In this document: positions 32,636 through 50,603 of the stretch, in pieces
How positions within the stretch are numbered: position 1 is the first letter of the stretch
Layout: the number at the start of each line of letters is the position of its first letter
NCBI RefSeq assembly: GCF_055900595.2
Contig: NZ_CM148325.1
DNA: 64,000 nucleotides
Reading direction: 5' to 3' (one strand)
The notes under the pieces: generated by a model
The model's input: only the letters and a program-made list of their open reading frames with translations
Database searches by the model: none
What the model was told of the DNA's origin: nothing
Made by a program: the position numbers and the translations under genes

Positions 32636-32822
32636 TTCGTAGGCCTGATAAGACGCGACAGCGTCGCATCAGGCATTGTGCACGATTGCCGGATGCGGCG
32701 TGAACGCCTTATCCGGCCTACCGTTCGGGTGCCGATTGTAGGCCTGATAAGACGCGGCAGCGTCGCATCAGGCATTATGCACGATTGCCGGATGCGGCGT
32801 GAACGCCTTTTCCGGCCTACCT
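32636..32822. repeat. Tandem REP/BIME elements between convergent hybG and yghU
   Basis: Two near-identical ~85-bp units (GTAGGCCTGATAAGACGCG.CAGCGTCGCATCAGGCATT.TGCACGATTGCCGGATGCGGCGTGAACGCCTT.TCCGGCCTAC). Confidence 0.7.
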
Positions 32823-33928: not shown

Positions 33929-35788
33929 ATGAGCAAAGGAACGACCAGCCAGGATGCCCCGTTCGGGACATTATTGGGCTACGCCCCAGGTGGGGTAGCA
34001 ATCTACTCTTCAGATTACAGTTCTCTCGATCCGCAGGAATACGAAGATGACGCCGTATTCCGTAGCTATATCGACGACGAATATATGGGCCACAAATGGC
34101 AATGCGTTGAATTTGCTCGCCGTTTTCTCTTTCTGAATTACGGTGTGGTCTTCACTGACGTGGGTATGGCGTGGGAGATTTTCTCGCTGCGCTTCCTGCG
34201 TGAAGTGGTTAATGACAACATCCTGCCATTGCAGGCATTTCCTAATGGCTCGCCGCGTGCACCGGTCGCGGGCGCGCTTCTTATCTGGGATAAAGGCGGT
34301 GAATTTAAAGACACTGGCCATGTCGCCATCATTACCCAATTGCATGGCAACAAAGTCCGTATTGCGGAACAGAACGTGATTCATTCCCCGTTACCGCAAG
34401 GGCAACAGTGGACACGCGAGCTGGAGATGGTGGTCGAAAACGGCTGCTATACCCTTAAAGACACGTTTGATGACACCACCATTCTGGGCTGGATGATCCA
34501 GACGGAAGATACTGAATACAGCTTACCGCAGCCGGAAATTGCAGGCGAGCTGCTGAAAATCAGCGGAGCGCGCCTGGAAAACAAAGGTCAGTTTGACGGT
34601 AAATGGCTGGATGAAAAAGATCCGCTACAAAACGCCTATGTGCAGGCCAACGGTCAGGTGATCAATCAGGATCCGTATCATTACTACACCATTACCGAGA
34701 GTGCCGAGCAGGAGCTGATTAAAGCCACCAACGAACTGCACCTGATGTATCTTCACGCCACCGACAAGGTGCTGAAAGATGACAACCTGCTGGCGCTGTT
34801 CGACATTCCGAAAATCCTCTGGCCACGTTTGCGTCTCTCCTGGCAGCGTCGCCGTCACCATATGATCACCGGTCGTATGGATTTCTGTATGGACGAACGT
34901 GGCCTGAAGGTCTACGAATACAACGCCGATTCCGCCTCCTGTCATACCGAAGCGGGCTTGATCCTCGAACGTTGGGCGGAGCAGGGCTATAAAGGCAACG
35001 GCTTCAATCCGGCGGAAGGGCTGATTAACGAACTGGCTGGTGCCTGGAAACACAGTCGTGCACGTCCGTTTGTCCATATCATGCAGGACAAAGATATCGA
35101 GGAAAACTATCACGCGCAGTTTATGGAGCAGGCGCTGCACCAGGCGGGCTTTGAAACGCGTATCTTGCGCGGGCTGGATGAACTGGGCTGGGATGCTGCC
35201 GGGCAACTGATTGATGGGGAAGGGCGACTGGTTAACTGCGTGTGGAAAACCTGGGCGTGGGAAACCGCGTTTGATCAGATTCGTGAAGTTAGCGACCGTG
35301 AGTTTGCTGCGGTGCCGATCCGTACCGGTCATCCGCAAAATGAAGTGCGTCTTATCGACGTATTGCTGCGCCCGGAAGTGCTGGTCTTTGAACCTCTGTG
35401 GACAGTGATCCCCGGCAACAAAGCGATTCTGCCGATCCTCTGGTCGCTGTTCCCGCACCATCGTTACCTGCTGGATACCGATTTCACTGTTAATGATGAA
35501 CTGGTAAAAACAGGTTACGCAGTGAAACCGATCGCCGGTCGCTGTGGCAGTAACATCGACCTCGTCAGCCATCATGAAGAGGTGCTGGACAAAACCAGCG
35601 GTAAATTTGCCGAGCAGAAAAACATCTATCAGCAACTGTGGTGTTTGCCGAAAGTGGACGGTAAATACATTCAGGTATGTACCTTCACCGTTGGCGGCAA
35701 CTACGGTGGGACGTGTTTGCGCGGTGATGAATCACTGGTCATTAAAAAAGAGAGTGATATTGAACCGTTAATTGTGGTGAAAGAGTAA
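33929..35788 (+). CDS. gss: Bifunctional glutathionylspermidine synthetase/amidase
   Basis: 619-aa ORF MSKGTTSQDAPFGTLLGYAPGG... with N-terminal CHAP amidase and C-terminal ATP-grasp synthetase. Confidence 0.95.
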   Translation: MSKGTTSQDAPFGTLLGYAPGGVAIYSSDYSSLDPQEYEDDAVFRSYIDDEYMGHKWQCVEFARRFLFLNYGVVFTDVGMAWEIFSLRFLREVVNDNILPLQAFPNGSPRAPVAGALLIWDKGGEFKDTGHVAIITQLHGNKVRIAEQNVIHSPLPQGQQWTRELEMVVENGCYTLKDTFDDTTILGWMIQTEDTEYSLPQPEIAGELLKISGARLENKGQFDGKWLDEKDPLQNAYVQANGQVINQDPYHYYTITESAEQELIKATNELHLMYLHATDKVLKDDNLLALFDIPKILWPRLRLSWQRRRHHMITGRMDFCMDERGLKVYEYNADSASCHTEAGLILERWAEQGYKGNGFNPAEGLINELAGAWKHSRARPFVHIMQDKDIEENYHAQFMEQALHQAGFETRILRGLDELGWDAAGQLIDGEGRLVNCVWKTWAWETAFDQIREVSDREFAAVPIRTGHPQNEVRLIDVLLRPEVLVFEPLWTVIPGNKAILPILWSLFPHHRYLLDTDFTVNDELVKTGYAVKPIAGRCGSNIDLVSHHEEVLDKTSGKFAEQKNIYQQLWCLPKVDGKYIQVCTFTVGGNYGGTCLRGDESLVIKKESDIEPLIVVKE

Positions 35789-35803
35789 TACATGTTGTAG
35801 CAA

Positions 35804-35838
35804 CCCCGCACTGATTATGAAGAATAATCAGTGCGGGG
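35804..35838 (+). terminator. Hairpin terminator after gss
   Basis: 15-bp stem CCCCGCACTGATTAT/ATAATCAGTGCGGGG with 5-nt loop, followed by an A/T-rich tract. Confidence 0.5.
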
Positions 35839-36079
35839 ATTAATCAAAATATTCAATATTTATATATTCAAATATTTATTCATTTCATGTGTGAATGTAT
35901 TAACCAGTGGAATGCCTGTGTTTTGATTATTTCTAAAGGTTTTGAATGAATGCTTATTATCTGATACACAAGAAATAACACTCTTTTTATCGTTAAAAAA
36001 TGATATTTCACTTTGCCCACGCCGTTAAAGTCACTGATAATGCGTCCGTTCGTAAATTCAAAATGGCGTAATCTAATAT

Positions 36080-37579
36080 ATGCTAAATTTATTTGTTGGC
36101 CTTGATATATACACAGGGCTTTTGTTATTACTTGCTCTGGCATTTGTGTTGTTCTACGAAGCAATCAATGGTTTTCATGACACGGCGAATGCGGTGGCAA
36201 CCGTTATTTATACTCGTGCCATGCAACCACAACTTGCTGTGGTGATGGCGGCATTTTTTAACTTTTTTGGCGTATTGCTAGGCGGACTTAGCGTTGCCTA
36301 TGCCATTGTCCATATGTTACCAACCGATTTGCTATTGAATATGGGGTCAACCCACGGTCTGGCGATGGTCTTTTCCATGCTGCTGGCGGCGATTATCTGG
36401 AACCTGGGAACGTGGTTCTTTGGTTTACCTGCTTCCAGTTCGCACACCTTGATTGGCGCGATTATCGGCATCGGTTTAACCAACGCGCTGTTAACCGGCT
36501 CATCGGTGATGGATGCGTTAAACCTGCGTGAAGTGACCAAGATTTTCTCCTCGCTGATTGTCTCCCCCATCGTCGGCCTGGTCATTGCAGGAGGACTGAT
36601 TTTCCTGCTGCGCCGTTTCTGGAGCGGGACGAAAAAGCGTGACCGCATTCACCGTATTCCTGAAGATCGCAAAAAGAAAAAGGGCAAACGTAAGCCGCCA
36701 TTCTGGACGCGTATTGCCCTCATTGTTTCCGCTGCGGGCGTGGCATTTTCGCACGGTGCGAATGACGGGCAGAAAGGGATCGGTCTGGTGATGCTGGTAC
36801 TGGTGGGGATTGCCCCTGCTGGTTTCGTCGTCAATATGAATGCGTCTGGCTATGAAATTACCCGTACCCGCGATGCAGTGACTAACTTCGAACACTATCT
36901 GCAACAGCATCCTGAACTGCCGCAGAAGTTGATCGCGATGGAACCGCCATTGCCTGCGGCATCGACTGATGGCACGCAAGCGACGGAGTTTCACTGTCAT
37001 CCGGCAAATACCTTTGATGCGATTGCGCGCGTTAAAACGATGCTGCCAGGCAATATGGAAAGTTACGAGCCGTTAAGCGTGAGTCAGCGCAGCCAGCTGC
37101 GCCGCATTATGCTGTGCATCTCTGATACCTCCGCGAAGCTGGCGAAACTGCCAGGCGTCAGTAAAGAAGACCAGAACCTGCTGAAAAAACTGCGCAGCGA
37201 TATGTTAAGCACCATTGAGTACGCTCCGGTGTGGATCATCATGGCAGTAGCTCTGGCGCTCGGCATTGGCACCATGATTGGCTGGCGTCGTGTAGCGATG
37301 ACCATCGGTGAGAAGATTGGTAAGCGCGGCATGACGTATGCGCAAGGCATGGCGGCACAAATGACGGCGGCAGTGTCTATCGGCCTTGCCAGTTATATTG
37401 GGATGCCCGTCTCCACAACACACGTACTCTCATCTGCCGTAGCAGGGACGATGGTGGTGGACGGCGGTGGGTTACAGCGTAAAACGGTAACCAGCATCCT
37501 GATGGCGTGGGTATTTACTTTACCGGCGGCGATTTTTCTTTCTGGTGGGTTGTACTGGATAGCATTGCAGTTGATTTAA
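36080..37579 (+). CDS. pitB: Low-affinity inorganic phosphate transporter PitB
   Basis: 499-aa polytopic ORF of the PiT family; the gss-adjacent paralogue in E. coli is pitB. Confidence 0.88.
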
Positions 37580-37590
37580 CCTTCCTGAAA

Positions 37591-37626
37591 ATGCCCGGTC
37601 CTGGCGATCGGGCATTTCCATTTTTG
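37591..37626. terminator. Hairpin between convergent pitB and yghT
   Basis: ATGCCCG...CGGGCAT stem followed by TTCCATTTTT. Confidence 0.4.
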
Positions 37627-37627
37627 A

Positions 37628-38320
37628 CTAGTGATAACCACGCGCGGTCATAAAATCCGTAATCGCTTTTTCTGCATCAACCAGCACCTTTTCCAGTGGC
37701 TGATTAGCATCGATATCAACCAGTTGTGCACCGCCAAAGGTTAACTGTGGCGTTATGGCAATCTTCCTCGCCAGCGATTCCCGTTTATGGTCGGGTTTAC
37801 GCGCGCAGGCAACTTCAAGGTCAACATTGAGTTTGATGACCAGATCAGGTTTATGGCTCGCCATCCAGTGAAACGCTTTACGTTCCTGGCTTGCCAGCCA
37901 TGAGACAAACCGGCCGCCTTCAACGTTAGGCGGGAACACTGTACCATCGTAAGCGCCAGGAATTTGGTCCTGAGGATAACGGTCGGTTAGAACAATTAAC
38001 CCGCGACGACGACAGGCAAGCATATGACGAAAGCGCAGTAAGCGACGGGCGACAAACGCTGTAATTACCAGCGCCGGAACTGGCCCAGGCAATTTTTTTG
38101 CTGTTTTCACCTGATTTCGTTCAATTGTTTTATGTAAGGATTTTCCCATCAACGGTAATTTTGTCACTGCACGACCGACATTTCCGGCCTGTTTTCCTAA
38201 ATGAACTCTTTCGGCAGCACCATATTTTTCGACAACGGTAATGAGATGTTCACACACCGTTGACTTGCCTGAACCATCGCTACCAATAACGGCAATTAAT
38301 GGAGGTGTTATTGACTGCAT
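37628..38320 (-). CDS. yghT: P-loop kinase-like protein YghT (thymidylate-kinase-like fold)
   Basis: 230-aa ORF; Walker [13 protein letters not shown]-type motif (LTDRYPQ); paralogous to the next two genes. Confidence 0.8.
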
Positions 38321-38493
38321 GAATATATCCTTTAATTTAAATATCCATTAAAAATATTTATTTGGTTAATATGTTTTTATGAAAGCGTAATTCAGGTCAA
38401 TGTCACAATTAACCATTGTCACAATAAGGTTGAACGGATATTCTGAGCACGGACCACGTAATATTCAATACATTATTTGCTGCCGGGTTTTTC

Positions 38494-39207
38494 GTGAATC
38501 AACGTAATATGTCAATAATTAATTCCACGCCAGTGCGTGTTATTGCCATTGTAGGATGTGATGGTTCAGGTAAATCGACCCTCACGGCAAGCCTGGTAAA
38601 TGAACTGGCAGCAAGAATGCCAACAGAACACATTTATCTCGGGCAATCGTCCGGGCGAATTGGCGAATGGATTTCACAGCTCCCTGTTATTGGCGCACCT
38701 TTTGGGCGTTATTTGCGAAGTAAAGCGGCACATGTGCACGAAAAGCCCTTAACACCGCCTGGCAATATTACTGCGCTGGTTATCTATCTGCTTTCCTGCT
38801 GGCGGGCGTACAAGTTTCGCAAAATGTTGTGTAAAAGCCAGCAAGGCTATCTGCTCATCACCGACCGCTACCCGCAGGTTGAAGTGCCGGGTTTTCGCTT
38901 TGATGGCCCGCAATTGGCAAAAACCACGGGCGGTAACGGCTGGATAAAAATGTTAAGGCAGCGCGAGCTGAAGCTGTACCAATGGATGGCGTCTTATTTG
39001 CCCGTATTGTTGATTCGTCTTGGCATTGATGAACAAACCGCGTTTTCGCGTAAACCTGACCATCAACTGGCGGCGTTACAGGAAAAAATCGCCGTTACGC
39101 CGCAACTGACATTCAATGGCGCCGGGATCCTTGAACTGGATGGTCGGCAACCAGCCGATGAAATTATGCAAGCGTCACTACGCGCAATTCACGCCGCGCT
39201 TTCCTGA
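38494..39207 (+). CDS. yghS: P-loop kinase-like protein YghS
   Basis: 237-aa ORF; Walker A GCDGSGKST, ITDRYPQ; paralogue of YghT/YghR. Confidence 0.8.
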   Translation: MNQRNMSIINSTPVRVIAIVGCDGSGKSTLTASLVNELAARMPTEHIYLGQSSGRIGEWISQLPVIGAPFGRYLRSKAAHVHEKPLTPPGNITALVIYLLSCWRAYKFRKMLCKSQQGYLLITDRYPQVEVPGFRFDGPQLAKTTGGNGWIKMLRQRELKLYQWMASYLPVLLIRLGIDEQTAFSRKPDHQLAALQEKIAVTPQLTFNGAGILELDGRQPADEIMQASLRAIHAALS

Positions 39208-39238
39208 TCACCAAAATGGATAGGGGATGATTTAACGA

Positions 39239-39997
39239 ATGGATGCACTACAAACACAAACTGTTAATAGTACAACCGTGCCGCAGCCCAACTACATTCC
39301 GGGGCTGATTGCGGTGGTCGGGTGTGATGGCACCGGTAAATCCACGCTGACCACCGACCTGGTGAAATCGCTGCAACAACACTGGCAAACCGAGCGCCGC
39401 TATTTGGGGCTGCTCTCCGGCGAAGACGGCGACAAAATCAAACGATTGCCGTTGGTTGGCGTCTGGCTGGAACGGCGACTGGCGGCCAAATCCTCGAAAA
39501 CCCAAAGCATGAAAACCAAATCTCCAGCGCTATGGGCGGCGGTGATTATGTACTGCTTCTCGCTGCGAAGAATGGCGAATCTACGCAAGGTTCAGCGACT
39601 GGCGCAAAGTGGCGTTCTGGTGGTCAGCGATCGCTTCCCGCAGGCTGAAATTTCGGGCTTTTATTATGACGGACCGGGGATTGGCGTCGAGCGCGCGACC
39701 GGGAAAATCAACCAATTTCTGGCGCAGCGCGAGCGACAGTTATACCAACAAATGGCGCAGTATCGTCCTGAATTAATCATTCGTTTGGGGATTGATATTG
39801 ATACTGCCATCTCCCGCAAGCCTGACCATGACTATGCCGAGCTGCAGGACAAAATCGGCGTCATGTCGACGATTGGCTATAACGGCACAAAAATTCTTGA
39901 GATTGATTCCAGAGCGCCCTACAGCGAAGTGCTGGAACAGGCACAGAAGGCGGTTTCTCTGGTTGCCATCGTTTCTGACCGCCGAAGTTTAACTTAA
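39239..39997 (+). CDS. yghR: P-loop kinase-like protein YghR
   Basis: 252-aa ORF; Walker A GCDGTGKST, VSDRFPQ; paralogue of YghS/YghT. Confidence 0.8.
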   Translation: MDALQTQTVNSTTVPQPNYIPGLIAVVGCDGTGKSTLTTDLVKSLQQHWQTERRYLGLLSGEDGDKIKRLPLVGVWLERRLAAKSSKTQSMKTKSPALWAAVIMYCFSLRRMANLRKVQRLAQSGVLVVSDRFPQAEISGFYYDGPGIGVERATGKINQFLAQRERQLYQQMAQYRPELIIRLGIDIDTAISRKPDHDYAELQDKIGVMSTIGYNGTKILEIDSRAPYSEVLEQAQKAVSLVAIVSDRRSLT

Positions 39998-40042
39998 GGC
40001 TGGCGGGATACTTTTTACTATCAACGATAAGGTCAGGCTGAA

Positions 40043-41392
40043 TTGGCGGGTTTTAACATCAAACATTGGTTTGCAGATGGCGCGTTTCGCACCATTATTC
40101 GCAATAGCGCCTGGTTAGGCTCCAGTAATGTCGTGAGCGCTTTGCTGGGTCTGTTGGCGCTCTCGTGTGCCGGTAAAGGGATGACGCCCGCCATGTTTGG
40201 CGTACTGGTGATTGTGCAATCGTACGCCAAGTCGATCAGCGATTTTATTAAGTTTCAGACATGGCAGTTGGTGGTGCAGTACGGAACGCCAGCCTTGACC
40301 AACAATAATCCGCAGCAATTTCGCAATGTCGTCTCATTTTCCTTCTCGTTGGATATCGTCAGCGGCGCGGTGGCGATTGTCGGCGGCATTGCCTTACTCC
40401 CTTTTCTTTCCCATTCATTAGGTCTGGATGACCAAAGCTTTTGGCTGGCAGCGCTGTATTGCACGCTCATTCCTTCAATGGCTTCCTCCACGCCGACCGG
40501 CATTCTGCGTGCGGTAGATAGCTTCGACTTAATTGCTGTACAGCAGGCGACGAAACCTTTTCTGCGCGCAGCGGGGAGCGTCGTTGCCTGGTATTTTGAC
40601 TTTGGTTTTGCGGGTTTTGTTATTGCCTGGTACGCCTCGAATCTTGTTGGCGGCACCATGTACTGGTGGTTTGCCGCACGTGAATTACGCCGCAGAAATA
40701 TCCATAACGCGTTCAAATTGAATCTGTTTGAGTCTGCCCGACACATCAAAGGCGCGTGGAGTTTTGTCTGGTCAACCAACATTGCCCATTCCATCTGGTC
40801 GGCGCGTAATTCGTGCAGCACAGTGTTGGTGGGGATCGTGTTAGGACCCGCTGCCGCCGGGTTATTTAAAATCGCCATGACATTCTTCGACGCCGCCGGA
40901 ACGCCAGCGGGTTTACTAGGTAAAAGTTTTTACCCAGAGGTGATGCGTTTAGATCCGCGCACCACCAGACCGTGGTTGTTAGGCGTGAAGTCCGGTTTAC
41001 TGGCGGGCGGAATCGGTATTCTGGTGGCGCTCGCGGTGTTGATCGTCGGCAAGCCGCTCATTTCGCTGGTGTTTGGCGTTAAGTATCTCGAAGCGTATGA
41101 CCTGATTCAGGTGATGCTGGGCGCAATTGTGATTTCGATGCTGGGCTTCCCACAGGAGTCATTGCTATTGATGGCGGGAAAACAGCGTGCTTTTCTCGTG
41201 GCGCAAACCATCGCCTCAATCGGCTACATCGTATTGCTGTTCATGTTCTGTCATCTGTTTGGCGTGCTGGGGGCTGCATTTGCTTACTTCGCTGGGCAAT
41301 GTCTGGATGTGGTGCTCTCGCTAATTCCAACCTTAAAGGCATTTTTTCAGCGCCATTCCTTGCTTTATAACGCAGCCGGAGAGAAATCCTGA
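40043..41392 (+). CDS. yghQ: Polytopic membrane protein YghQ (MOP/Wzx-like flippase family), full length here
   Basis: 449-aa ORF with about 12 predicted TM helices; TTG start as given by the ORF track (true start uncertain); stop overlaps the next ORF (TGATG). Confidence 0.75.
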   Translation: MAGFNIKHWFADGAFRTIIRNSAWLGSSNVVSALLGLLALSCAGKGMTPAMFGVLVIVQSYAKSISDFIKFQTWQLVVQYGTPALTNNNPQQFRNVVSFSFSLDIVSGAVAIVGGIALLPFLSHSLGLDDQSFWLAALYCTLIPSMASSTPTGILRAVDSFDLIAVQQATKPFLRAAGSVVAWYFDFGFAGFVIAWYASNLVGGTMYWWFAARELRRRNIHNAFKLNLFESARHIKGAWSFVWSTNIAHSIWSARNSCSTVLVGIVLGPAAAGLFKIAMTFFDAAGTPAGLLGKSFYPEVMRLDPRTTRPWLLGVKSGLLAGGIGILVALAVLIVGKPLISLVFGVKYLEAYDLIQVMLGAIVISMLGFPQESLLLMAGKQRAFLVAQTIASIGYIVLLFMFCHLFGVLGAAFAYFAGQCLDVVLSLIPTLKAFFQRHSLLYNAAGEKS

Positions 41393-42228
41393 TGATGAGA
41401 AAATATTTCCCGCTTGAGGCTAGCGAGCGTCTATTTGTTGCGATTGAAGAAGATGATGTCGTTGATGCACAGGTCAGTTTGCCGCCGACTATCGCACTAA
41501 GTTGTACCACCGAAATCATCCATGATAATTACGCGTTATGCCTGAAATTCTGGCTGGATGGTGTTAATCGTCAGGAGCTACTGCGTTTAATCCGCAAACA
41601 GGCGAAAGGCGATGAGCTGACGACAGACGAGCGCAAAAAGTATAAATACATGCGAGCGCGCTACAAGCATCTGCGCTTTGCGCAACGGCTGTATTTAAAG
41701 AAGCATCAGGCCGGATTTTTATTCGGCAAAACGACCGTTTTTTTGGGGCGTTTTCAGGACGGCTTTCGTAACGGTAAGAAAAATATTGTGTCGTATTACG
41801 GCAACCTGTTACGGGTTTATTTAAGCTCTCCGGTCTGGTCGTTGGTGAACTATTCATTACGCCATAGCCAGTTAGAAAGCGTAAGCGGTTTTATTGCCTA
41901 TCGGCAAAAGCAAATGCATACCCTGAAAGAGATAATTGCCAAACCGCGACTAACTGGCAGGGAATTTCATGATGTGCGAAAAATCATCAGCCAGCAGGTT
42001 TCTTATTACGACACCCTAAGATCGCTTGATCCTGAAAATAAAGAGGCGTTACAGATTTCCCGCTTCCTCGCCGCCATTAATGGCCTGATGGGGGATAAAC
42101 ACGACGACATGGTGGCGGATGATATGGAAAACCGCCAGTCGTATGATGCACCGATGGCGCTGGATAGCGATATTCGTCAGCGCTTAGAACTGCTGATTTC
42201 GCGTTTCCCACTCTATCCGGAGCAATAA
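41392..42228 (+). CDS. Hypothetical soluble protein (278 aa), coupled to yghQ
   Basis: Start overlaps the yghQ stop; stop overlaps the next start (TAATG); no motif recognised by eye. Confidence 0.6.
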   Translation: MMRKYFPLEASERLFVAIEEDDVVDAQVSLPPTIALSCTTEIIHDNYALCLKFWLDGVNRQELLRLIRKQAKGDELTTDERKKYKYMRARYKHLRFAQRLYLKKHQAGFLFGKTTVFLGRFQDGFRNGKKNIVSYYGNLLRVYLSSPVWSLVNYSLRHSQLESVSGFIAYRQKQMHTLKEIIAKPRLTGREFHDVRKIISQQVSYYDTLRSLDPENKEALQISRFLAAINGLMGDKHDDMVADDMENRQSYDAPMALDSDIRQRLELLISRFPLYPEQ

Positions 42229-42788
42229 TGCCATCTCGTTGGATTTTCGCTCTGATCATCGCACTCTTAGCGCCAGGCGCGGTGGCACACAATTTCGTCA
42301 CTGGTAAAACGGTTACCCCTGTTTATATCCAGGAAGGCGGTGAGTTGCTTCTGAATAGCGACGACGAAATTCACTACCAAAAGTGGAACAGCACACAGCT
42401 GGCGGGAAAAGTCCGCATTATTCAGTATATCGCCGGGCGTAAGTCGGCGAAGAAAAAGAACTCACTGTTAATTAAAGCGGTTGAAGCGGCAAACTTTCCG
42501 CAGGATCGTTTTCAGCCCACCACCATTGTGAACACCGATGATGCCATCTTTGGTACCGACTATTTTGTCGTTGGCAAAATCGAAAAAAATAAACGCCGCT
42601 ATCCATGGGCGCAATTCGTTATTGACGGCAATGGACAGGGACGTGTTGCCTGGCGCTTGCCGGAGCAGAGTTCAACCATTCTGGTGCTGAATAAAAACGG
42701 GCAAATTCAGTGGGCAAAGGACGGCAGCCTGACGCCGGAAGAGGTAGATCATGTCATTGCGCTGGCGCAGAAGCTGATCAATGAATAA
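42228..42788 (+). CDS. Secreted/periplasmic protein (186 aa), possibly YtfJ-like
   Basis: Cleavable signal peptide MPSRWIFALIIALLAPGAVAHN; translationally coupled to the upstream ORF. Confidence 0.6.
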   Translation: MPSRWIFALIIALLAPGAVAHNFVTGKTVTPVYIQEGGELLLNSDDEIHYQKWNSTQLAGKVRIIQYIAGRKSAKKKNSLLIKAVEAANFPQDRFQPTTIVNTDDAIFGTDYFVVGKIEKNKRRYPWAQFVIDGNGQGRVAWRLPEQSSTILVLNKNGQIQWAKDGSLTPEEVDHVIALAQKLINE

Positions 42789-42818
42789 AAAACTCAAAGG
42801 ATTGAGGGCGTTAGTGAG

Positions 42819-43889
42819 ATGAAGCTGGTTGAACACTACATCATGCGTGGTACGCGCCGTCTGGTGCTGATTATCGTCGGTTTTCTGATCTTTATTTTCG
42901 CCAGCTACTCCGCACAGCGTTATCTGACCGAAGCGGCAAATGGGACATTAGCTCTTGATGTTGTGCTGGATATCGTTTTCTACAAAGTGCTGATTGCACT
43001 GGAGATGCTGTTACCTGTTGGACTATATGCTTCAGTTGGCGTGACGCTAGGGCAAATGTATACCGACTCGGAAATTACCGCTATCTCCGCGGCGGGGGGC
43101 AGTCCGGGACGCTTGTACAAAGCCGTTCTTTATCTGGCGATACCGCTAAGTATTTTTGTCACCCTTCTGTCGATGTATGGTCGTCCGTGGGCTTATGCGC
43201 AGATTTATCAACTGGAGCAACAGTCACAGTCGGAGCTGGATGTTCGCCAGTTGCGGGCAAAGAAATTTAACACTAACGATAACGGACGAATGATCCTTTC
43301 GCAGACGGTTGATCAGGATAATAATCGCCTGACTGACGCGCTGATTTATACTTCTACTGCCAATCGAACCCGCATTTTCCGCGCCCGTTCGGTTGATGTG
43401 GTTGACCCATCACCTGAGAAACCGACCGTTATGTTGCATAACGGGACCGCCTATCTTCTCGATCATCAGGGGCGTGACGACAACGAACAGATCTACCGTA
43501 ATCTGCAATTACATCTGAATCCGCTGGATCAAAGCCCTAACGTCAAACGCAAAGCAAAATCGGTCACGGAGCTGGCGCGCTCCGCCTTTCCTGCCGATCA
43601 TGCCGAACTGCAATGGCGACAAAGCCGTGGCCTGACAGCATTGTTGATGGCGCTGCTGGCCATTTCATTAAGTCGGGTAAAACCGCGGCAAGGGCGATTT
43701 TCAACGTTATTGCCACTGACGTTGCTGTTTATTGCCATTTTTTATGGCGGCGACGTCTGCCGTACGCTGGTGGCTAACGGCGCGATTCCCCTCATTCCTG
43801 GTTTGTGGTTAGTACCCGGACTCATGCTAATGGGCCTGCTGATGCTGGTCGCACGCGACTTCTCTTTGCTGCAGAAATTTTCCCGATGA
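42819..43889 (+). CDS. LptF/LptG-family (YjgP/YjgQ) permease paralogue, first of a pair
   Basis: 356-aa ORF with N-terminal MKLVEHYIMRGTRRLVLIIVGFLIFIF resembling LptF/LptG; predicted TM helices flanking a periplasmic domain. Confidence 0.7.
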   Translation: MKLVEHYIMRGTRRLVLIIVGFLIFIFASYSAQRYLTEAANGTLALDVVLDIVFYKVLIALEMLLPVGLYASVGVTLGQMYTDSEITAISAAGGSPGRLYKAVLYLAIPLSIFVTLLSMYGRPWAYAQIYQLEQQSQSELDVRQLRAKKFNTNDNGRMILSQTVDQDNNRLTDALIYTSTANRTRIFRARSVDVVDPSPEKPTVMLHNGTAYLLDHQGRDDNEQIYRNLQLHLNPLDQSPNVKRKAKSVTELARSAFPADHAELQWRQSRGLTALLMALLAISLSRVKPRQGRFSTLLPLTLLFIAIFYGGDVCRTLVANGAIPLIPGLWLVPGLMLMGLLMLVARDFSLLQKFSR

Positions 43890-44965
43890 ATGTTTTCAGC
43901 CGCTATTTAATCCGTCATCTCTTTCTCGGTTTTGCCGCCGCCGCAGGGCTATTGCTGCCGCTTTTTACCACCTTCAACCTGATTAACGAACTGGATGATG
44001 TCGGCCCGGGCGGTTATCGCTGGACCCAGGCGGTGCTGGTGGTGCTGATGACCTTACCGCGCACACTGGTCGAACTTTCGCCGTTTATCGCCTTATTGGG
44101 AGGGATTGTCGGCCTGGGGCAACTATCGAAAAACAGTGAGCTTACCGCCATTCGCAGCACGGGGTTTTCTATCTTCCGTATTGCACTGGTGGCGCTGGTT
44201 GCCGGGATATTGTGGACTGTTTCGTTAGGCGCGATAGATGAGTGGGTGGCGTCGCCATTGCAGCAACAGGCGCTGCAAATCAAATCGACTGCCACCGCGT
44301 TGGGGGAGGACGATGACATTACCGGCAATATGCTTTGGGCCAGGCGCGGTAATGAATTTGTGACGGTGAAATCGCTGAACGAGCAGGGCCAGCCTGTGGG
44401 CGTGGAGATATTTCATTATCGCGACGATCTCTCGCTCGAATCCTACATTTTTGCACGCAGTGCCTCCATTGAAGACGACAAAACATGGATCCTGCATGGT
44501 GTGAATCATAAAAAATGGTTGAATGGCAAAGAAACGCTGGAAACATCAGATAATCTTACCTGGCAATCGGCCTTCACCAGTATGAATCTTGAAGAGTTAT
44601 CGATGCCGGGAAATACTTTTTCTGTCCGTCAACTTAATCATTACATCCATTATTTGCAGGAAACTGGGCAACCCAGCAGCGAATACCGCCTTGCACTGTG
44701 GGAAAAACTGGGACAACCCATCCTGACCCTGGCGATGATTTTGCTGGCTGTGCCGTTTACCTTTAGTGCCCCGCGTTCGCCTGGGATGGGTAGCCGTCTC
44801 GCTGTAGGCGTCATCGTGGGCTTACTTACCTGGATCAGCTATCAAATCATGGTCAATCTGGGATTGCTATTTGCGTTGAGCGCACCTGTTACCGCGCTCG
44901 GTTTACCGGTAGCGTTTGTGCTGGTGGCGTTGAGCCTGGTGTATTGGTATGACAGACAACATTAA
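43886..44965 (+). CDS. LptF/LptG-family (YjgP/YjgQ) permease paralogue, second of a pair
   Basis: ATG at 43886 overlaps the upstream stop (ATGA); MNVFSRYLIRHLFLGFAAAAGLLLPLFT... typical LptG-like N-terminus; 359 aa. Confidence 0.7.
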   Translation: MNVFSRYLIRHLFLGFAAAAGLLLPLFTTFNLINELDDVGPGGYRWTQAVLVVLMTLPRTLVELSPFIALLGGIVGLGQLSKNSELTAIRSTGFSIFRIALVALVAGILWTVSLGAIDEWVASPLQQQALQIKSTATALGEDDDITGNMLWARRGNEFVTVKSLNEQGQPVGVEIFHYRDDLSLESYIFARSASIEDDKTWILHGVNHKKWLNGKETLETSDNLTWQSAFTSMNLEELSMPGNTFSVRQLNHYIHYLQETGQPSSEYRLALWEKLGQPILTLAMILLAVPFTFSAPRSPGMGSRLAVGVIVGLLTWISYQIMVNLGLLFALSAPVTALGLPVAFVLVALSLVYWYDRQH

Positions 44966-44999
44966 ACCCGCCGTGGCGCAACACCACAGCGGGCTCACA

Positions 45000-46172
45000 T
45001 TACTGCTTCAGAGTAGCGAACGCTTGAATGATGGCATCAATTTGCTCACGACTGTGGGCAGCGTTTACGCTACAGCGCAGCAGCGTGATGCCTGCAGGCG
45101 CGGCAGGTGGCAGGATAAGATTCACATAAACGCCCAGCGAAATAAGCTCGCGCCAGATGCGTAAACCTTCCTCTTTCGAACCGATTATTACTGGCACTAC
45201 CGGGCTAATATGTGAACTTAACTCATAATCCAGTTTTTGCAGACCGTCATACAGATGGTTGGCATTATCCATCAGCTTTTGCCGCAACTCTGGTTGTGAG
45301 GCAATGGTTCTTAACGACGAGCGCACGGTCGCAATGCAGGACGGAGAAGGAGAGGCGGTAAAAATATACGGGCGGCTGCCGTAGCGCAACACTTCCATCG
45401 CTTCCGAACCGACAGCAAAACCGCCAATCGAGGCCAGACTTTTACTGAAGGTACCAACGATAATATCCACATCATCTTCAACGCCAACGGCTTCAGCCAG
45501 TCCGCGCCCCGTTGCGCCTAACACGCCAAACGAATGCGCTTCATCGACAATCAAATAACCACCGAGACGACGTTTGATATCAACAATTTCCGCCAGCGGC
45601 GCAACGTCACCGAGCATACTGTAGATGCCTTCAACGATGATAATCGCCTCTTTTGCCCGTTCACCGAGGCGAACCATGCGCCGTTCCAGATCTTTAGCAT
45701 CGTTATGGCGGAAACGAATAATTTCCGCGCCACCGAGAGAACAGGCGTCATAAATACTGGCGTGGCTGTCGGCATCCAGTAACACCACGGCGTTATGGTC
45801 GGCAAGTGCGCTGATGACGCCTAAATTAGCGGTATAACCGGTTGAAAAAACGATAGCGGTAGGGCGATTAAAAAACTCGGCGATCTCTTTCTCTAACGCC
45901 AGATGCGGCGCATAACTGCCGTTTGCCATACGAGAACCGGTGGTGCCGGTGCCTTGGGCCGCTAACGCTGCCTGACCTTCGGCGATGGCATCATGATTAA
46001 AGGTTAAACCGAGATAATTATTGGTCCCGGCCAGAATCACTTTTTTATTGCCGATCCGACCTTCGGTGGCGGAATACACTTCATCAATACAGGTGCCAAA
46101 CGGTGTTAACCCGTTGTCACTAAATTGCAGTCGCTCGCCAGCAAGGCGCGCATATTTATCGTATAGCCCCAT
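45000..46172 (-). CDS. PLP-dependent alpha-oxoamine synthase, serine-palmitoyltransferase-like
   Basis: 390-aa ORF with PLP-lysine motif GTFSKSLASIGG and DEAHSFG motif characteristic of SPT/KBL/BioF enzymes. Confidence 0.8.
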   Translation of the reverse strand: MGLYDKYARLAGERLQFSDNGLTPFGTCIDEVYSATEGRIGNKKVILAGTNNYLGLTFNHDAIAEGQAALAAQGTGTTGSRMANGSYAPHLALEKEIAEFFNRPTAIVFSTGYTANLGVISALADHNAVVLLDADSHASIYDACSLGGAEIIRFRHNDAKDLERRMVRLGERAKEAIIIVEGIYSMLGDVAPLAEIVDIKRRLGGYLIVDEAHSFGVLGATGRGLAEAVGVEDDVDIIVGTFSKSLASIGGFAVGSEAMEVLRYGSRPYIFTASPSPSCIATVRSSLRTIASQPELRQKLMDNANHLYDGLQKLDYELSSHISPVVPVIIGSKEEGLRIWRELISLGVYVNLILPPAAPAGITLLRCSVNAAHSREQIDAIIQAFATLKQ

Positions 46173-46420
46173 TATTTATTCTCCAGCCATGGAAGTAGTG
46201 TTTCCATTAATTGCGCAGGGGTTTTGACATCCAGCAGAATATTAATAGGAATGGAAATATCGAATCTGTCTTCCAGCATCATTAAGAGATCCATCACTTT
46301 GATCGACTCCAGGCCAAGATCGTTGACGAGATCGCTGTCGGGCTTAATTTCCACACCGTTTTCGACCAAATCCTGTAAACAGGAAAGGATGTAATCCATT
46401 ACTATTTCACGATTTACCAT
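46172..46420 (-). CDS. Dedicated acyl carrier protein
   Basis: 82-aa acidic ORF with phosphopantetheine-site motif DLGLESI; stop overlaps the SPT-like gene start. Confidence 0.75.
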   Translation of the reverse strand: MVNREIVMDYILSCLQDLVENGVEIKPDSDLVNDLGLESIKVMDLLMMLEDRFDISIPINILLDVKTPAQLMETLLPWLENK

Positions 46421-46451
46421 AGAAACGTTAACACACCTTTAAACAAGACAA

Positions 46452-47366
46452 TCAAAATAGCCCGTTGCGTAATGCGTGTTCCAGGCTAATCCCGGGAAAC
46501 CAATTAATATCTTCAGAAATACGGTTATTACTTGCTGACCAGTCGGCGTGGGTTAATTCACGGATTTTCGAGCGGGTCAGCATAGGTTCTTTACCTGCCA
46601 GGCGACTCAACGCGGTACTGATATCCGCAAGGCAGGTGAGTACCGACAGAGGAATACCAACCATTCGAACGGAACCGCAACGGGCGTCGGCGGCAAGTTG
46701 CTGTACGCGTTGCCAGTCATAGCCGCCGGCGACGCCATCGCATAATTCATAGGTTTGCGTCTGTACAGTTTCGGCGCTTAACCACTGCCCCACGGCTTGC
46801 GCGAAATCGGTGACGTGCAGGAAAGAGAGCTGTGTATCTGGCGCACCAAGTCGTGGCAGCAGGCCGCGCAGCATCCAGTCAAACAGCGGTTTTAACTCTT
46901 TATCGCCGGGACCATACACGGCTGTCGGGCGAAAAATGCCCAGCGTAATTTCGTCAGCCATTGCGGTCAGTCGTTGTTCGGCGACGTGTTTGGAATTTGC
47001 GTACCAGGAGAGTTCGGGATGACGCGCCGCCAGCGAAGAGATAAACAGAAAACGTTGGCAAAAGCCGCTCTCTTTTGCCGCTTGCATCAGGCGCAGGCTG
47101 CCGTCAACGTTACAGCGGGTAAAAATCTCTTCTTTGTGTCCGCGCACTTGTCCGGCGCAATGGACCACCGCGCTGGCTCCGGCAACCAGTTCGCTAAGCG
47201 AATGTGTATCTTCCAGCGAACCGCGCACCCAGATGAGATTATCATTGACGTGAGCGCGGGCAGTACGCGTCAATGCGCGAACGTGAAAGCCGCGGGCGAG
47301 CAGGTTATCGATAATATATTTACCGATAAACCCGGTAGCGCCCGTCACCGCGACAGTTTGATTCAT
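46452..47366 (-). CDS. NAD(P)-dependent epimerase/dehydratase-family reductase (extended SDR)
   Basis: 304-aa ORF with Rossmann motif VTGATGFIGKYI and YxxxK motif (YANSK); start overlaps the FAAL stop (ATGA). Confidence 0.75.
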   Translation of the reverse strand: MNQTVAVTGATGFIGKYIIDNLLARGFHVRALTRTARAHVNDNLIWVRGSLEDTHSLSELVAGASAVVHCAGQVRGHKEEIFTRCNVDGSLRLMQAAKESGFCQRFLFISSLAARHPELSWYANSKHVAEQRLTAMADEITLGIFRPTAVYGPGDKELKPLFDWMLRGLLPRLGAPDTQLSFLHVTDFAQAVGQWLSAETVQTQTYELCDGVAGGYDWQRVQQLAADARCGSVRMVGIPLSVLTCLADISTALSRLAGKEPMLTRSKIRELTHADWSASNNRISEDINWFPGISLEHALRNGLF

Positions 47367-49084
47367 GCCAGGGATTCCTGCACATGAAGGCTTGCAGCAT
47401 AAGCCTTCTGATAACGTTTTTTCGCTTCCGCACGGGCAGGCTTGCCGGAGGACGTTCGGGGAATACTGTGGGGCGGCAACAGATCGATAGCCGCGGTTAC
47501 GCCAAATTCGCTTTGGATCCGTGCTGCCAGTGCGTGGATAAGCTGCCCACGACGTTCTTCGTCGCTGATCCTACACTGGATCTGCAGAATGATTTTTTCC
47601 TGGGCGGTAACAAAAGCAATCGCATCGCCAGAATGAATTTCCGGTTCCTGTTCCGCAATATATTCAATATCCTGCGGCCAGATATTACGGCCACGAATAA
47701 TAATCAGATCTTTAATGCGTCCGGTGACATACAGATAACCGTCCAGCAGATAACCGAGGTCGCCGGTATCTAACCAGCCCGTCGCGGCAATCTCGTCTTG
47801 CGAAACCTGGTCGCCAAAGTAACCGCTCATCAGGCTGGGGCCGGAGATGCAAATATGGCCTACCACACGTTCCGCGACCGGCATACCTGCTTCATTGCGG
47901 ATTTCAATGCCATGTTCCGGCAACGCTTTACCGCAGTTGACGAAAGTCGATACGGCGCGTGTTTCAGCACCCGGCGCGACGGCTTTGCCCTGATATTCAA
48001 GGATGTCGCGATCCACTTCGTTAACCACAACCCCGGAGGCTTCATCAGAGAAGCTGACAGCCAGCGCATTTTCTGCCAGTCCGTAGCACGGCATGAACGT
48101 TTTATCGTCAAAGTTAACCTGACGGAAACATTCAGCGAATTGATGGAGTTGTTCTGCGGAGATGGGTTCTGCACCAATACCAGCGACGCGCCAGCAGGAA
48201 AGATCCAGTTCAGCGAGATCTTTTTCATTCACGCGGCGCTGGCACAATTCATAGCCAAACGGCGGCGCAACGGAAACGGTGCCGCGATTTTTACTGATCA
48301 ATTTAAGCCATTGCAGAGGACGCATGGCAAAATCCTGAGTGCGCAAATAATCTACTGAAAGCTGCGTGGCGACGGGGGTCAGGAGAAAGCCGACCAGTCC
48401 CATATCATGGTAGAAAGGCAGCCAGGAGACGCAGCGGTCGCCAGGGCGTAATTTAATGCCATCGTGGCTTATAGCACGTAGATTAGCCATCACTTCGCGA
48501 TGGGTGATAATGACGCCACGGGGAAAACGGGTGCTGCCGGAGGTGTACTGGAGGTAGGCGATATCGTTCGGAACTGGATGCTGGAGTGCAACATCGGCTT
48601 CCGGTAATGCCTTAAACCAGGCGTGGCTTAAAACATGTAATTCGGGGTTGTTATGCGTAGCGGCATTGACCAGTGGCAACCACTCATCACCAGTGATAAT
48701 GGCTGCGGGCTGGCAACTTGCCAGTAAACCCTGCAGTTTGGCGCTCCAGGAATCCCGCTGACCGATGCCCATTGGAATCGCCAACGGGACGGCGACTAAG
48801 CCGGCATACTGGCAGGAAAAAAAAGCCTCTACGAACCCGCTACTGGTTTCGGCAATCAGCGCCACGCGATCGCCTTTTTTCAGGTTCAGCGATAACAACC
48901 GCTTCGCACCAGCTTCGGCACGCGCTTTTAACGTCTGATATTCCAGTTGATCTTCAAGTTGGCAACGTCTGTCATAAAAATTCATTCCGGCGCTACTCAG
49001 AGCGGCGTAGTCCAAAGCATCAACCAGCGTTGGAAAATCGGCATAGCGCATAGGTAGGGAATGCGTAAAGATTTTATTAGACAT
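47363..49084 (-). CDS. Fatty acyl-AMP ligase / acyl-ACP synthetase (FAAL-type adenylating enzyme)
   Basis: Start set at ATG 49084 (MSNKIFTHSLPMRYADFPTL...; the ORF track's 49111 start is TTG); AMP-binding motif YTSGSTRFPRGV resembling FadD32-type FAALs. Confidence 0.8.
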   Translation of the reverse strand: MSNKIFTHSLPMRYADFPTLVDALDYAALSSAGMNFYDRRCQLEDQLEYQTLKARAEAGAKRLLSLNLKKGDRVALIAETSSGFVEAFFSCQYAGLVAVPLAIPMGIGQRDSWSAKLQGLLASCQPAAIITGDEWLPLVNAATHNNPELHVLSHAWFKALPEADVALQHPVPNDIAYLQYTSGSTRFPRGVIITHREVMANLRAISHDGIKLRPGDRCVSWLPFYHDMGLVGFLLTPVATQLSVDYLRTQDFAMRPLQWLKLISKNRGTVSVAPPFGYELCQRRVNEKDLAELDLSCWRVAGIGAEPISAEQLHQFAECFRQVNFDDKTFMPCYGLAENALAVSFSDEASGVVVNEVDRDILEYQGKAVAPGAETRAVSTFVNCGKALPEHGIEIRNEAGMPVAERVVGHICISGPSLMSGYFGDQVSQDEIAATGWLDTGDLGYLLDGYLYVTGRIKDLIIIRGRNIWPQDIEYIAEQEPEIHSGDAIAFVTAQEKIILQIQCRISDEERRGQLIHALAARIQSEFGVTAAIDLLPPHSIPRTSSGKPARAEAKKRYQKAYAASLHVQESLA

Positions 49085-49454
49085 ATACACCACGAAAAAA
49101 TTGGATATCAAAAATAAAATGACAATAATGCGGTGGATTATATAGGCATAAAAGATAAATGAGATAGTATTTTCATCAGTGTGAAAATGAACATTGATTT
49201 AAATAATGAGTTTGAGTTTTTTGTTTTTATTGTGAATGATATTTAATTTATGAATGTATTAAGAAGAAGCCTTGTCCGGTCGCCTTAAATCGACAAAAGG
49301 CATTGTGGCGCTTCTGTGTAGTCTCTGACCTTATCGTAATCATTAATAAATGCTATTTATTCGTCGTTTGTATTCATTGGGTTGATTATTAAGGTGCCGT
49401 TCGTTGCTGTTGCAACCTGTTTGTCACCGTTAATTATTTGTTACCCACAGAACT
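49085..49454. promoter_or_regulatory. AT-rich divergent intergenic region (probable promoters for the FAAL operon and yghO)
   Basis: 370 bp of strongly AT-rich sequence with poly-A/T tracts between divergent genes; no individual promoter element is called. Confidence 0.4.
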
Positions 49455-50597
49455 ATGGAATGCGATCTGCTGATGATTAAAATTGAAAAAGTAATTAATA
49501 AAAATGACCTTAAGGCATTTATCGCTTTTCCGTCATCACTTTATCCCGACGATCCAAACTGGATACCCCCTTTATTCATTGAACGCAACGAGCATTTGTC
49601 TGCGAAAAATCCGGGGACGGACCATATCATCTGGCAGGCGTGGGTGGCAAAAAAAGCCGGGCAGATAGTTGGGCGAATTACCGCGCAAATCGATACCTTG
49701 CACCGTGAGCGTTACGGTGAAGATACCGGTCATTTCGGCATGATTGACGCCATTGATGATCCGCAGGTTTTTGCCGCGTTGTTTGGCGCAGCGGAAGCGT
49801 GGTTGAAGTCACAAGGTGCAAGTAAGATCAGCGGTCCTTTCAGCCTGAATATCAATCAGGAAAGCGGATTACTGATTGAAGGTTTCGATACACCACCCTG
49901 TGCGATGATGCCGCACGGTAAACCGTGGTATGCCGCGCATATTGAACAATTGGGTTATCACAAAGGCATTGATTTACTAGCGTGGTGGATGCAGCGAACC
50001 GATCTCACTTTCTCTCCGGCGCTAAAAAAACTGATGGATCAGGTGCGTAAGAAGGTGACCATTCGCTGCATCAATCGCCAGCGGTTTGCCGAAGAGATGC
50101 AGATCCTGCGTGAGATTTTCAACTCTGGCTGGCAGCACAACTGGGGATTTGTGCCGTTTACCGAACATGAATTCGCGACTATGGGCGATCAACTTAAATA
50201 TCTGGTGCCGGACGATATGATCTACATCGCTGAGATTGATTCTGCACCCTGCGCGTTTATTGTTGGCTTGCCAAACATCAACGAGGCGATTGCCGATCTG
50301 AACGGATCGCTCTTTCCCTTCGGCTGGGCAAAATTGCTGTGGCGTTTAAAAGTCAGCGGTGTGCGAACTGCGCGAGTACCGCTGATGGGCGTGCGGGACG
50401 AGTATCAGTTTAGCCGCATCGGCCCGGTGATTGCGCTGTTATTGATTGAAGCCTTACGCGATCCGTTTGCCCGCCGGAAGATCGATGCGCTGGAAATGTC
50501 ATGGATCCTCGAAACCAATACAGGCATGAATAACATGCTGGAACGCATTGGGGCAGAGCCGTACAAGCGTTACCGATTGTATGAAAAGCAGATTTGA
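49455..50597 (+). CDS. yghO: YghO, acyl-CoA N-acyltransferase-like protein, apparently full length
   Basis: 380-aa ORF (alternative start at ATG 49473); recognised as the full-length counterpart of the K-12 yghO remnant. Confidence 0.7.
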   Translation: MECDLLMIKIEKVINKNDLKAFIAFPSSLYPDDPNWIPPLFIERNEHLSAKNPGTDHIIWQAWVAKKAGQIVGRITAQIDTLHRERYGEDTGHFGMIDAIDDPQVFAALFGAAEAWLKSQGASKISGPFSLNINQESGLLIEGFDTPPCAMMPHGKPWYAAHIEQLGYHKGIDLLAWWMQRTDLTFSPALKKLMDQVRKKVTIRCINRQRFAEEMQILREIFNSGWQHNWGFVPFTEHEFATMGDQLKYLVPDDMIYIAEIDSAPCAFIVGLPNINEAIADLNGSLFPFGWAKLLWRLKVSGVRTARVPLMGVRDEYQFSRIGPVIALLLIEALRDPFARRKIDALEMSWILETNTGMNNMLERIGAEPYKRYRLYEKQI

Positions 50598-50603
50598 TGG
50601 CAG

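Follow-up and report, generated by a model that had tools for sequence, protein, structure and literature searches.

A 64,000-nucleotide window of an Escherichia coli chromosome (NCBI RefSeq assembly GCF_055900595.2, contig NZ_CM148325.1) carries a five-gene transport operon at positions 40043–44965, which ends in a second pair of LptF/LptG-like permeases, here called LptF2 and LptG2. The operon converges on genes for ceramide synthesis. We consider it likely that it is the export half of an E. coli sphingolipid locus, in which YghQ would flip a ceramide-derived lipid and the permease pair, working with the ATPase LptB (LptB2F2G2), would then extract it from the inner membrane. The initial annotation of this DNA had suggested that the pair serves a lipid other than lipopolysaccharide (LPS). 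This suggestion is supported by relatives that lie in sphingolipid loci, by the loss of LPS contacts and by the genetics of the Caulobacter LptF2/G2 proteins (10.64898/2026.04.12.717747).

The suggestion was right in substance, and for Caulobacter it has already been published as a concept. It did not name sphingolipids as the lipid class, nor the probable extension of the operon upstream to yghS and yghR. Newly observed here are the CHAD-like fold of the second gene product, a cysteine-free YtfJ paralogue and a kinase–yghQ–CHAD block that extends to the Sphingomonadales. The loss of LPS contacts in LptG2, its sphingolipid-locus relatives and the purifying selection on all cluster genes are likewise new.

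The LptF2/LptG2 permease pair

Both permeases passed the curated models of the LPS transporter subunits (LptF2 against TIGR04407, 317.5 bits, cutoff 230; LptG2 against TIGR04408, 307.2 bits, cutoff 240), and RefSeq therefore names the genes lptF and lptG. The cross-scores were far lower, with 64 bits for LptF2 and 84 bits for LptG2 on the model of the other subunit. LptF2 is 29% identical to K-12 LptF, and LptG2 is 28% identical to K-12 LptG. Hydropathy analysis yielded the same profile for both proteins: three transmembrane (TM) segments, a hydrophilic insert of ~150 aa and three further TM segments. Each aligns end to end with the solved LptF and LptG chains, and the insert falls on their periplasmic β-jellyroll region. 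With the curated models passed and the alignment covering the full length, including the insert between TM3 and TM4, the description of the pair as two ~360-aa LptF/LptG paralogues holds.

The initial annotation had itself raised the objection that the pair might be the housekeeping lptFG. Of 5426 complete E. coli genomes, 5425 have the canonical pair elsewhere, next to pepA, and this, together with the identity of 28–29%, rules the objection out. No ABC (ATP-binding cassette) ATPase is annotated in the whole 64-kb window, so that the reported lack of a nearby LptB-type ATPase was also correct. The second pair resembles the housekeeping LptB2FG(C) complexes (PDB 6mhu, 6mit, 6s8g, 5x5y; PMC6744409) in having six TM segments per subunit, a periplasmic domain between TM3 and TM4, adjacent F and G genes with an ATGA overlap, and the same coupling-helix glutamates. 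It differs from them in its low identity, its location away from pepA, its accessory status (75% of strains) and its ceramide-synthesis neighbours. About 75% of the E. coli genomes in RefSeq carry two lptF and two lptG annotations. The name 'LPS export ABC transporter permease LptF/LptG', assigned to the second pair by the Prokaryotic Genome Annotation Pipeline (PGAP), is likely an over-annotation.

The substrate pocket was examined by comparing 41 LptF2/LptG2 orthologues with the list of LPS contacts in PMC6744409. Four basic contacts are retained: LptF R33 and K317 (as Arg), and LptG K62 (as Arg) and R136 (as Lys). LptG2 has exchanged K34 for Asn, Asp or Thr, K40 for Asp or Glu, K41 for Asp, R133 for Leu and D37 for Asn; in LptG, the K34E mutation is lethal (PMC6744409). 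In LptF2, the inner-core contacts K322 (Asn) and Q248 (Ala/Ser) are lost, and R263 is variable. Overall, the contacts with the lipid A phosphates and the inner core are not conserved in LptF2/LptG2. The glutamate equivalent to LptF E84 is present in 41/41 LptF2 orthologues, and that equivalent to LptG E88 in 40/41 LptG2 orthologues. In LptF and LptG, these are the coupling-helix glutamates that dock LptB. LptF R212, which is linked to LptC dependence, is replaced by Ala, Ser, Gly or Thr in LptF2. We infer that LptF2G2 keep the ATPase interface and a reduced basic patch, and would no longer fit a bis-phosphorylated, core-bearing lipid A.

LptG2 was searched against 1.84 billion representative proteins, and the contigs of six matches were inspected. 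Full-length matches were found at 51, 45 and 44% identity, followed by a continuum from 37% down. On four inspected contigs (45, 44, 37 and 36% identity; 307–203 bits), the LptG2 relative is the second gene of an LptF/LptG pair; these four are its nearest relatives outside the Enterobacterales. Two of these four loci hold spt, PP-binding, epimerase and AMP-binding genes, and all four hold some of the DAGK-type kinase, CDP-alcohol transferase, Tam41, Metallophos and nucleotidyltransferase genes. This gene set is the one described for the ceramide-phosphoglycerate locus of Caulobacter (PMC11324152). The solved LptG chains of E. coli and its close relatives score only about 151 bits against LptG2. 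Judged by sequence, LptG2 is closer to the LptG copies of sphingolipid loci than to housekeeping LptG.

The genes on which the pair converges had been described as an amino-lipid synthesis operon; with spt, acpR, a reductase and a ligase, they belong to the rhodobacterial-type ceramide pathway (PMC9386255). The corresponding genes of E. coli BL21(DE3) are ECD_02851 (aasR), ECD_02852 (epi), ECD_02853 (acpR), ECD_02854 (spt) and ECD_02850 (yghO, the N-acyltransferase), and co-expressed AasR, AcpR and SPT of E. coli B form 3-oxo-sphinganine (PMC9386255). PGAP places the start of aasR at 49051. For yghO, no NCBIfam match was obtained, and Pfam assigned it to no family either.

A locus of the same kind is known in Caulobacter crescentus. 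In 2024, CC_1168, CC_1156 and CC_1155 were proposed as LptC2, LptF2 and LptG2, which together with the flippase CC_1166 would move phosphosphingolipids to the outer membrane (PMC11324152). In Caulobacter, the deletion of lptF2, lptG2 and lptC2 is possible only where spt or cpgB is mutated; on purification, LptF2 and LptG2 (CCNA_01214/CCNA_01213, equal to CC_1156/CC_1155) were recovered together and in company of the single LptB, but not of LptC2 (10.64898/2026.04.12.717747). Figure 2B of this April 2026 preprint draws the E. coli UTI89 locus beside that of Caulobacter and asserts homology. Both loci contain a second, overlapping LptF/LptG pair beside spt, acpR, cerR, aasR and bcerS, both have a Wzx-type flippase candidate (CC_1166 in Caulobacter), and neither has an lptB copy. 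The extraction of sphingolipids from the inner membrane by means of the housekeeping LptB is proposed for both. Unlike Caulobacter, E. coli lacks LptC2 and the CPG2 head-group genes (the ceramide kinase CC_1160, CC_1159, CC_1161, CC_1158 and CC_1152/53); in their stead, its cluster encodes three P-loop kinase-like proteins, one protein with a CHAD-like fold and a paralogue of YtfJ. The literature searched holds no transport experiment in E. coli and no mention of the CHAD-like protein, the YtfJ paralogue or YghR/S/T in a sphingolipid context.

YghQ, orf278, YtfJ2 and the kinases

YghQ matched Pfam PF13440 Polysacc_synt_3 (E 3.9e-7) and, over residues 18–436, the NF007773 'MOP flippase family' model (E 1.4e-8), where 34 bits against a cutoff of 273 place it at the superfamily level only. 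Its hydropathy profile contains at least 10 hydrophobic segments. At this level, the initial assignment of the 449-aa protein as MOP/Wzx-like is confirmed. Two metagenomic loci with an LptF2G2-like pair (L074, 15010–16722; L075, 4144–5895) have an MsbA-like ABC half-transporter gene (ABC_membrane + ABC_tran) nearby and lack any gene for a MOP flippase. Different lineages may use different families for the flippase step.

The product of orf278 yielded no Pfam match with E < 0.05, CHAD (PF05235) included, and no NCBIfam match. Sequence searches against the PDB found nothing for orf278 or YtfJ2, and the informative comparison for both is at the fold level only. The fold of the 278-aa protein consists of two four-helix bundles of the CHAD type with conserved basic and His residues. 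It is thus a CHAD-like fold, which is a new observation. The closest known counterparts are CHAD domains (PF05235; Ricinus 6qv5, Streptomyces PptA 6rn5 and the C-terminal domain of E. coli YgiF, 5a61). In contrast to these, orf278 has no Pfam CHAD match, and it belongs to a lipid locus, where its translation is coupled to that of a gene for a candidate membrane flippase. Homologues also occur in the Acetobacteraceae. In Luteibacter (L047; 9152 and 10001), two tblastn matches to the CHAD-like protein lie ~850 nt apart. The downstream one looks like a tandem second copy; relatives have a single gene directly after yghQ. Pluralibacter (L018, L025) has a second, orphan CHAD-like copy of 301 aa with an N-terminal extension, away from the cluster genes.

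A periplasmic protein with a signal peptide had been predicted as the third gene product, and the signal peptide of the 186-aa reading frame, MPSRWIFALIIALLAPGAVA followed by HN, could indeed be read from the sequence. YtfJ2 matched YtfJ_HI0045 (PF09695/TIGR01626) over its full length with 210.8 bits against a cutoff of 151.1 (PF09695, E 4.9e-59), and is 54% identical to K-12 YtfJ (b4216; L067, 4709–5263). Its thioredoxin fold carries a basic loop, and the CxxC active site of TlpA/DsbE/ResA-type oxidoreductases is absent. A redox role is excluded for YtfJ2, whose thioredoxin-like fold is devoid of cysteine. YtfJ2 shares the full-length family match and the signal peptide with the YtfJ (b4216)/HI0045 family (PF09695), the function of which is unknown. 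Unlike b4216, it is a second copy embedded in a sphingolipid transport operon. A synteny scan (one genome per species, with the 278-aa protein as the query) returned 63 loci; YtfJ2 is kept in 43 of them, always next to yghQ–orf278. The cluster holds paralogues of three core envelope genes, namely lptF, lptG and ytfJ. The housekeeping ytfJ has no known function, and its paralogue in a lipid-export operon provides a lead to the role of the YtfJ family.

The best remote relatives of YghR, YghS and YghT are thymidylate kinases (TMPK), and the DRY motif is present. Pfam and NCBIfam searches gave no family beyond P-loop-level matches. YghT, which is 34% identical to YghR, matched dTMP kinase only remotely (E 1e-5, 25 bits against a cutoff of 83). 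PGAP calls both yghS and yghT 'dTMP kinase' at only ~25 bits against this cutoff, and the names are likely over-annotations. The three proteins were rejected as substitutes for LptB: they have no ABC signature, their matches are at the Walker A level only (~25–30 residues, E ≥1e-3), and they are TMPK-like.

Layout, distribution and relatives of the locus

The region 40043–44965 is 100% identical to E. coli strain FDAARGOS_448, in which PGAP annotates the five coding sequences alike (RefSeq NZ_CP023960.1). The gene order is pitB, yghT (minus strand), yghS, yghR, yghQ, orf278, ytfJ2, lptF2 and lptG2, followed by the convergent spt operon, yghO and glcC (Table 1).

Table 1. Genes and signals of the transport and ceramide-synthesis cluster, with positions in the window
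Feature	Product or description	Position	Strand	Remarks
yghQ	MOP/Wzx-like inner-membrane protein, candidate sphingolipid flippase	40043..41392	+	449 aa, TTG start
orf278 (Ybl138 in UniProt entries)	Cytoplasmic, basic, all-helical protein, CHAD-like fold	41392..42228	+	278 aa
ytfJ2	Periplasmic YtfJ-family protein, cysteine-free thioredoxin fold	42228..42788	+	186 aa, signal peptide
lptF2	Diverged LptF paralogue	42819..43889	+	356 aa
lptG2	Diverged LptG paralogue	43886..44965	+	359 aa from ATG; longest open reading frame begins upstream at GTG
yghT	P-loop kinase-like, divergent from yghS	37628..38320	-	230 aa; Walker A and DRYPQ motif
yghS	P-loop kinase-like paralogue	38494..39207	+	237 aa
yghR	P-loop kinase-like paralogue	39239..39997	+	252 aa
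spt	Serine palmitoyltransferase	45000..46172	-	NF047599, 595.8 bits, cutoff 500
acpR	Specialised acyl carrier protein	46172..46420	-	PMC9386255
epi/cerR	NAD-dependent reductase of the ceramide pathway	46452..47366	-	ECD_02852 in PMC9386255
aasR	Fatty acyl-AMP ligase / acyl-AcpR synthetase	47363..49111	-	NF006624, 874.6 bits, cutoff 600
yghO	N-acyltransferase (aca/bCerS homologue)	49455..50597	+	ECD_02850 in PMC9386255
Sigma-70-like promoter match	Candidate operon promoter upstream of yghS	38416..38444	+	TTGTCA-17-TATTCT, 9/12 consensus positions
Hairpin	16-bp, G+C-rich, between the lptG2 and spt stop codons; probable bidirectional terminator	44963..44997

The five plus-strand genes had initially been described as linked by overlapping stop and start codons. 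This was found at three of the four junctions, yghQ/orf278 (TGATG, 1 nt), orf278/ytfJ2 (TAATG, 1 nt) and lptF2/lptG2 (ATGA, 4 nt), whereas ytfJ2 and lptF2 are separated by a gap of 30 nt. The overlaps recur across genera: that of lptF2/lptG2 is 4 nt in 38 of 40 loci and 1 nt in the other two, and yghQ and orf278 overlap in 42 of 56 loci. Upstream of yghQ and on the same strand lie yghS and yghR, with gaps of 31 nt between these two and 45 nt between yghR and yghQ. The sole promoter-like match of the operon is located before yghS. Consensus scans of the region for promoters and terminators gave no more sites than shuffled controls; apart from the hairpin described below, these sites serve as hints only, and the evidence for this promoter is weak. 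The transcription unit probably comprises seven genes (yghS to lptG2) instead of five. In the spacer between the convergent stop codons lies the hairpin, which looks perfect and the 16 pairs of which, nine of them G–C, occupy nearly all of the 34 nt; it is probably a bidirectional terminator of the lptG2 and spt operons. An Rfam scan of 35500–51000 with E up to 0.1 gave one sub-threshold match only, to the Listeria small RNA rli38 (35759–35888, minus strand, upstream of pitB; 36.4 bits against a gathering threshold of 49, E 0.056), which we took as chance. Farther upstream, at about 31321–32669, this strain has a copy of the IS3-family element IS1397 between hybG and yghU.

The five-gene transport operon is complete, with all reading frames intact, in 4091 of 5426 E. 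coli genomes, and the spt operon is complete in 4067 of them. The K-12 lineage has the insertion sequence IS5 at nucleotide ~1065 of yghQ; everything from there to aasR is gone, and yghO survives. The deletion was mapped by comparing 40043–41392 of the window with positions 6001–8195 of the K-12 derivative J53 (L066). K-12 has thus lost the transport and spt operons in one IS5-associated deletion, and its 'yghQ' (355 aa) is a truncated remnant. Because the gene is truncated by IS5, the K-12 yghQ phenotypes (chlorhexidine adaptation, PMC8170033; an mlaA screen) are uninformative on the intact operon. For all 13 genes from yghT to yghO, the ratio of nonsynonymous to synonymous substitution rates (dN/dS), calculated against two other Escherichia species and Pseudocitrobacter, is 0.03–0.15, which is comparable to that of the neighbouring pitB. 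This purifying selection on all cluster genes argues against a decaying island.

About 40 Enterobacterales species hold all 13 genes together, with rearranged blocks (yghT–yghS–yghR; yghQ–orf278–ytfJ2; lptF2–lptG2; aasR–epi–acpR–spt; yghO). In the synteny scan, yghQ lies directly upstream of orf278 in 56 loci, and yghT and yghO co-cluster in 56/63 and 36/63 loci, respectively. Some genera keep ytfJ2 beside yghQ and have lptF2G2 in divergent orientation. The kinase–YghQ–Ybl138 block is kept from the Sphingomonadales through the Xanthomonadales to the Enterobacterales. In the Sphingomonadales (Novosphingobium, Sphingomonas, Altericroceibacterium), it has two P-loop kinase genes on the same strand as yghQ and the CHAD-like gene; the order in the Xanthomonadales (Rhodanobacter, Luteibacter, Dyella) is yghT, yghS, yghR, aasR, epi, acpR, spt, yghQ and the CHAD-like gene. 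Neither lptF2G2 nor ytfJ2 was found within 10 kb in the loci of these two orders.

An MdtABC-like resistance-nodulation-division (RND) system adjoins the block in the two loci annotated, Novosphingobium L050 (14714–19267) and Rhodanobacter L046 (10804–19619). It consists of an adaptor and of unannotated open reading frames of RND-permease size (~1050–1090 aa), of which L050 has one and L046 two; L046 also carries a gene for an outer-membrane factor. In Rhodanobacter, the system is located between the CHAD-like gene and the yghO homologue. It may be an alternative route of sphingolipid export. The Rhodanobacter locus also has an OlsC/LpxO-like lipid acyl 2-hydroxylase gene between the kinases and aasR (3525–4283; 223.6 bits against a cutoff of 450), which suggests 2-hydroxylated acyl chains in the sphingolipid of this organism.

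Proposed export route and its alternatives

According to the route that we propose, AasR, AcpR, Spt, CerR and YghO would synthesize ceramide or a derivative on the cytoplasmic side. YghQ, as a Wzx-like MOP protein, would flip the lipid to the periplasmic leaflet of the inner membrane. The heterodimeric LptF2/LptG2 extractor would dock the single LptB2 of the cell through the coupling-helix glutamates and pull the lipid from the membrane. The periplasmic β-jellyroll domains would then pass it outward, with the shared LptC/A/D/E bridge as the probable path. An accessory role would fall to the CHAD-like protein, the YtfJ paralogue and YghT/S/R, which most likely act on or recognize a phosphorylated head group and replace the Cpg enzymes and LptC2 of Caulobacter. 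Since E. coli is without the Caulobacter head-group enzymes and LptC2, its gene content suggests that the kinases and the CHAD-like protein may serve a different, probably phosphorylated, head group. A more speculative extension, to which we give limited credence, is that the two or three TMPK-like kinases, YghQ and Ybl138 constitute an unrecognized sphingolipid head-group module. E. coli and its relatives would then produce a (poly)phosphorylated ceramide that differs from CPG2; its phosphate-rich head group would be recognized by the CHAD-like protein and handed to the flippase, and YtfJ proteins would partner Lpt-type extractors.

Several observations weigh against the proposed route. The binding of LptB has been demonstrated for the Caulobacter proteins only, and the orthology with Caulobacter LptF2/G2 was judged indirectly, from the gene context of intermediate relatives; of the six contexts inspected, two (P0252, P0254) were uninformative. 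The match of YghQ to MOP flippases is weak (34 bits), and the remaining basic and new acidic residues of the cavity do not identify the head group. No sphingolipid from wild-type E. coli was reported in the literature searched, and the activity of the E. coli enzymes was measured only once they had been overexpressed (PMC9386255). The lack of LptF2G2 in the Xanthomonadales and Sphingomonadales loci means that the LptF2G2 route is not universal for the yghQ–orf278 module.

Three other explanations were considered. The pair could be a second LPS exporter, which provides redundancy or handles a modified LPS or lipid A variant, with YghQ as an O-antigen or oligosaccharide flippase ('lipopolysaccharide biosynthesis protein'). 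The equivalog cutoffs exceeded by both permeases (317.5 vs. 230 and 307.2 vs. 240 bits), the agreeing RefSeq annotation and the four retained basic cavity residues are in line with this. However, the identity to true LptFG is only 28–29%, and the inner-core contacts and three LptG phosphate contacts are lost or replaced by Asp/Glu; the K34E change is lethal in LptG (PMC6744409). The genes co-occur and are co-deleted with spt and not with LPS genes, the nearest relatives are located in sphingolipid loci, and the cluster has no glycosyltransferase or undecaprenyl pyrophosphate genes. This leaves a second LPS exporter as very improbable and the least likely of the three. It is also improbable, though less so, that the cluster is an accessory island which lies silent and has no physiological effect at present, with the permease pair as a passenger. 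Every gene has a dN/dS of 0.03–0.15, comparable to pitB, the reading frames are intact in 4091 genomes, the start/stop overlaps are kept across genera, and the E. coli B enzymes are active (PMC9386255). Against this stand the absence of the cluster from K-12 and about a quarter of strains without obvious cost, the lack of a native E. coli sphingolipid in the literature searched and the weakness of the promoter-like matches.

The remaining explanation accepts a sphingolipid-type pair and changes the path. LptF2G2 would bypass LptB and the Lpt bridge, with YtfJ2 as a soluble carrier in a Lol- or Mla-like shuttle, or the system would serve retrograde or maintenance transport. YtfJ2 is retained in 43/63 loci, always beside yghQ–orf278, the E. 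coli cluster has neither LptC2 nor LptA2, and even in Caulobacter LptC2 was not co-purified with LptF2/G2 (10.64898/2026.04.12.717747). In some genera, however, YtfJ2 is kept with yghQ while lptF2G2 run divergently. The replacement of LptF R212, a residue linked to LptC dependence, by Ala, Ser, Gly or Thr would favour a bypass as well. The opposite is indicated by the conservation of the glutamates that contact LptB and by the lack of any other annotated nucleotide-binding domain in the window; no lipid-binding cavity has been demonstrated in YtfJ2, which has a thioredoxin fold with a basic loop. The Caulobacter LptF2/G2 proteins bind LptB (10.64898/2026.04.12.717747). We regard a bypass as unlikely, and retain extraction through LptB2F2G2 as the probable route.

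E. coli serves as the reference organism for outer-membrane biogenesis, yet this cluster has been deleted from the laboratory strain K-12. The second Lpt-type extractor and the ceramide pathway of ~75% of sequenced strains, among them BL21, UTI89 and clinical isolates, have therefore received hardly any study in this species. The CHAD-like protein, the cysteine-free YtfJ paralogue and the three P-loop kinases are leads to the head group. If YtfJ proteins are periplasmic partners of Lpt-type extractors, this would be the first functional lead for the housekeeping YtfJ. If the proposed export route is correct, most E. coli could place a lipid that is neither LPS nor a glycerophospholipid in the outer membrane. 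This would bear on permeability, on polymyxin and detergent tolerance and on host recognition, and would imply competition for the shared LptB ATPase, an antibiotic target.

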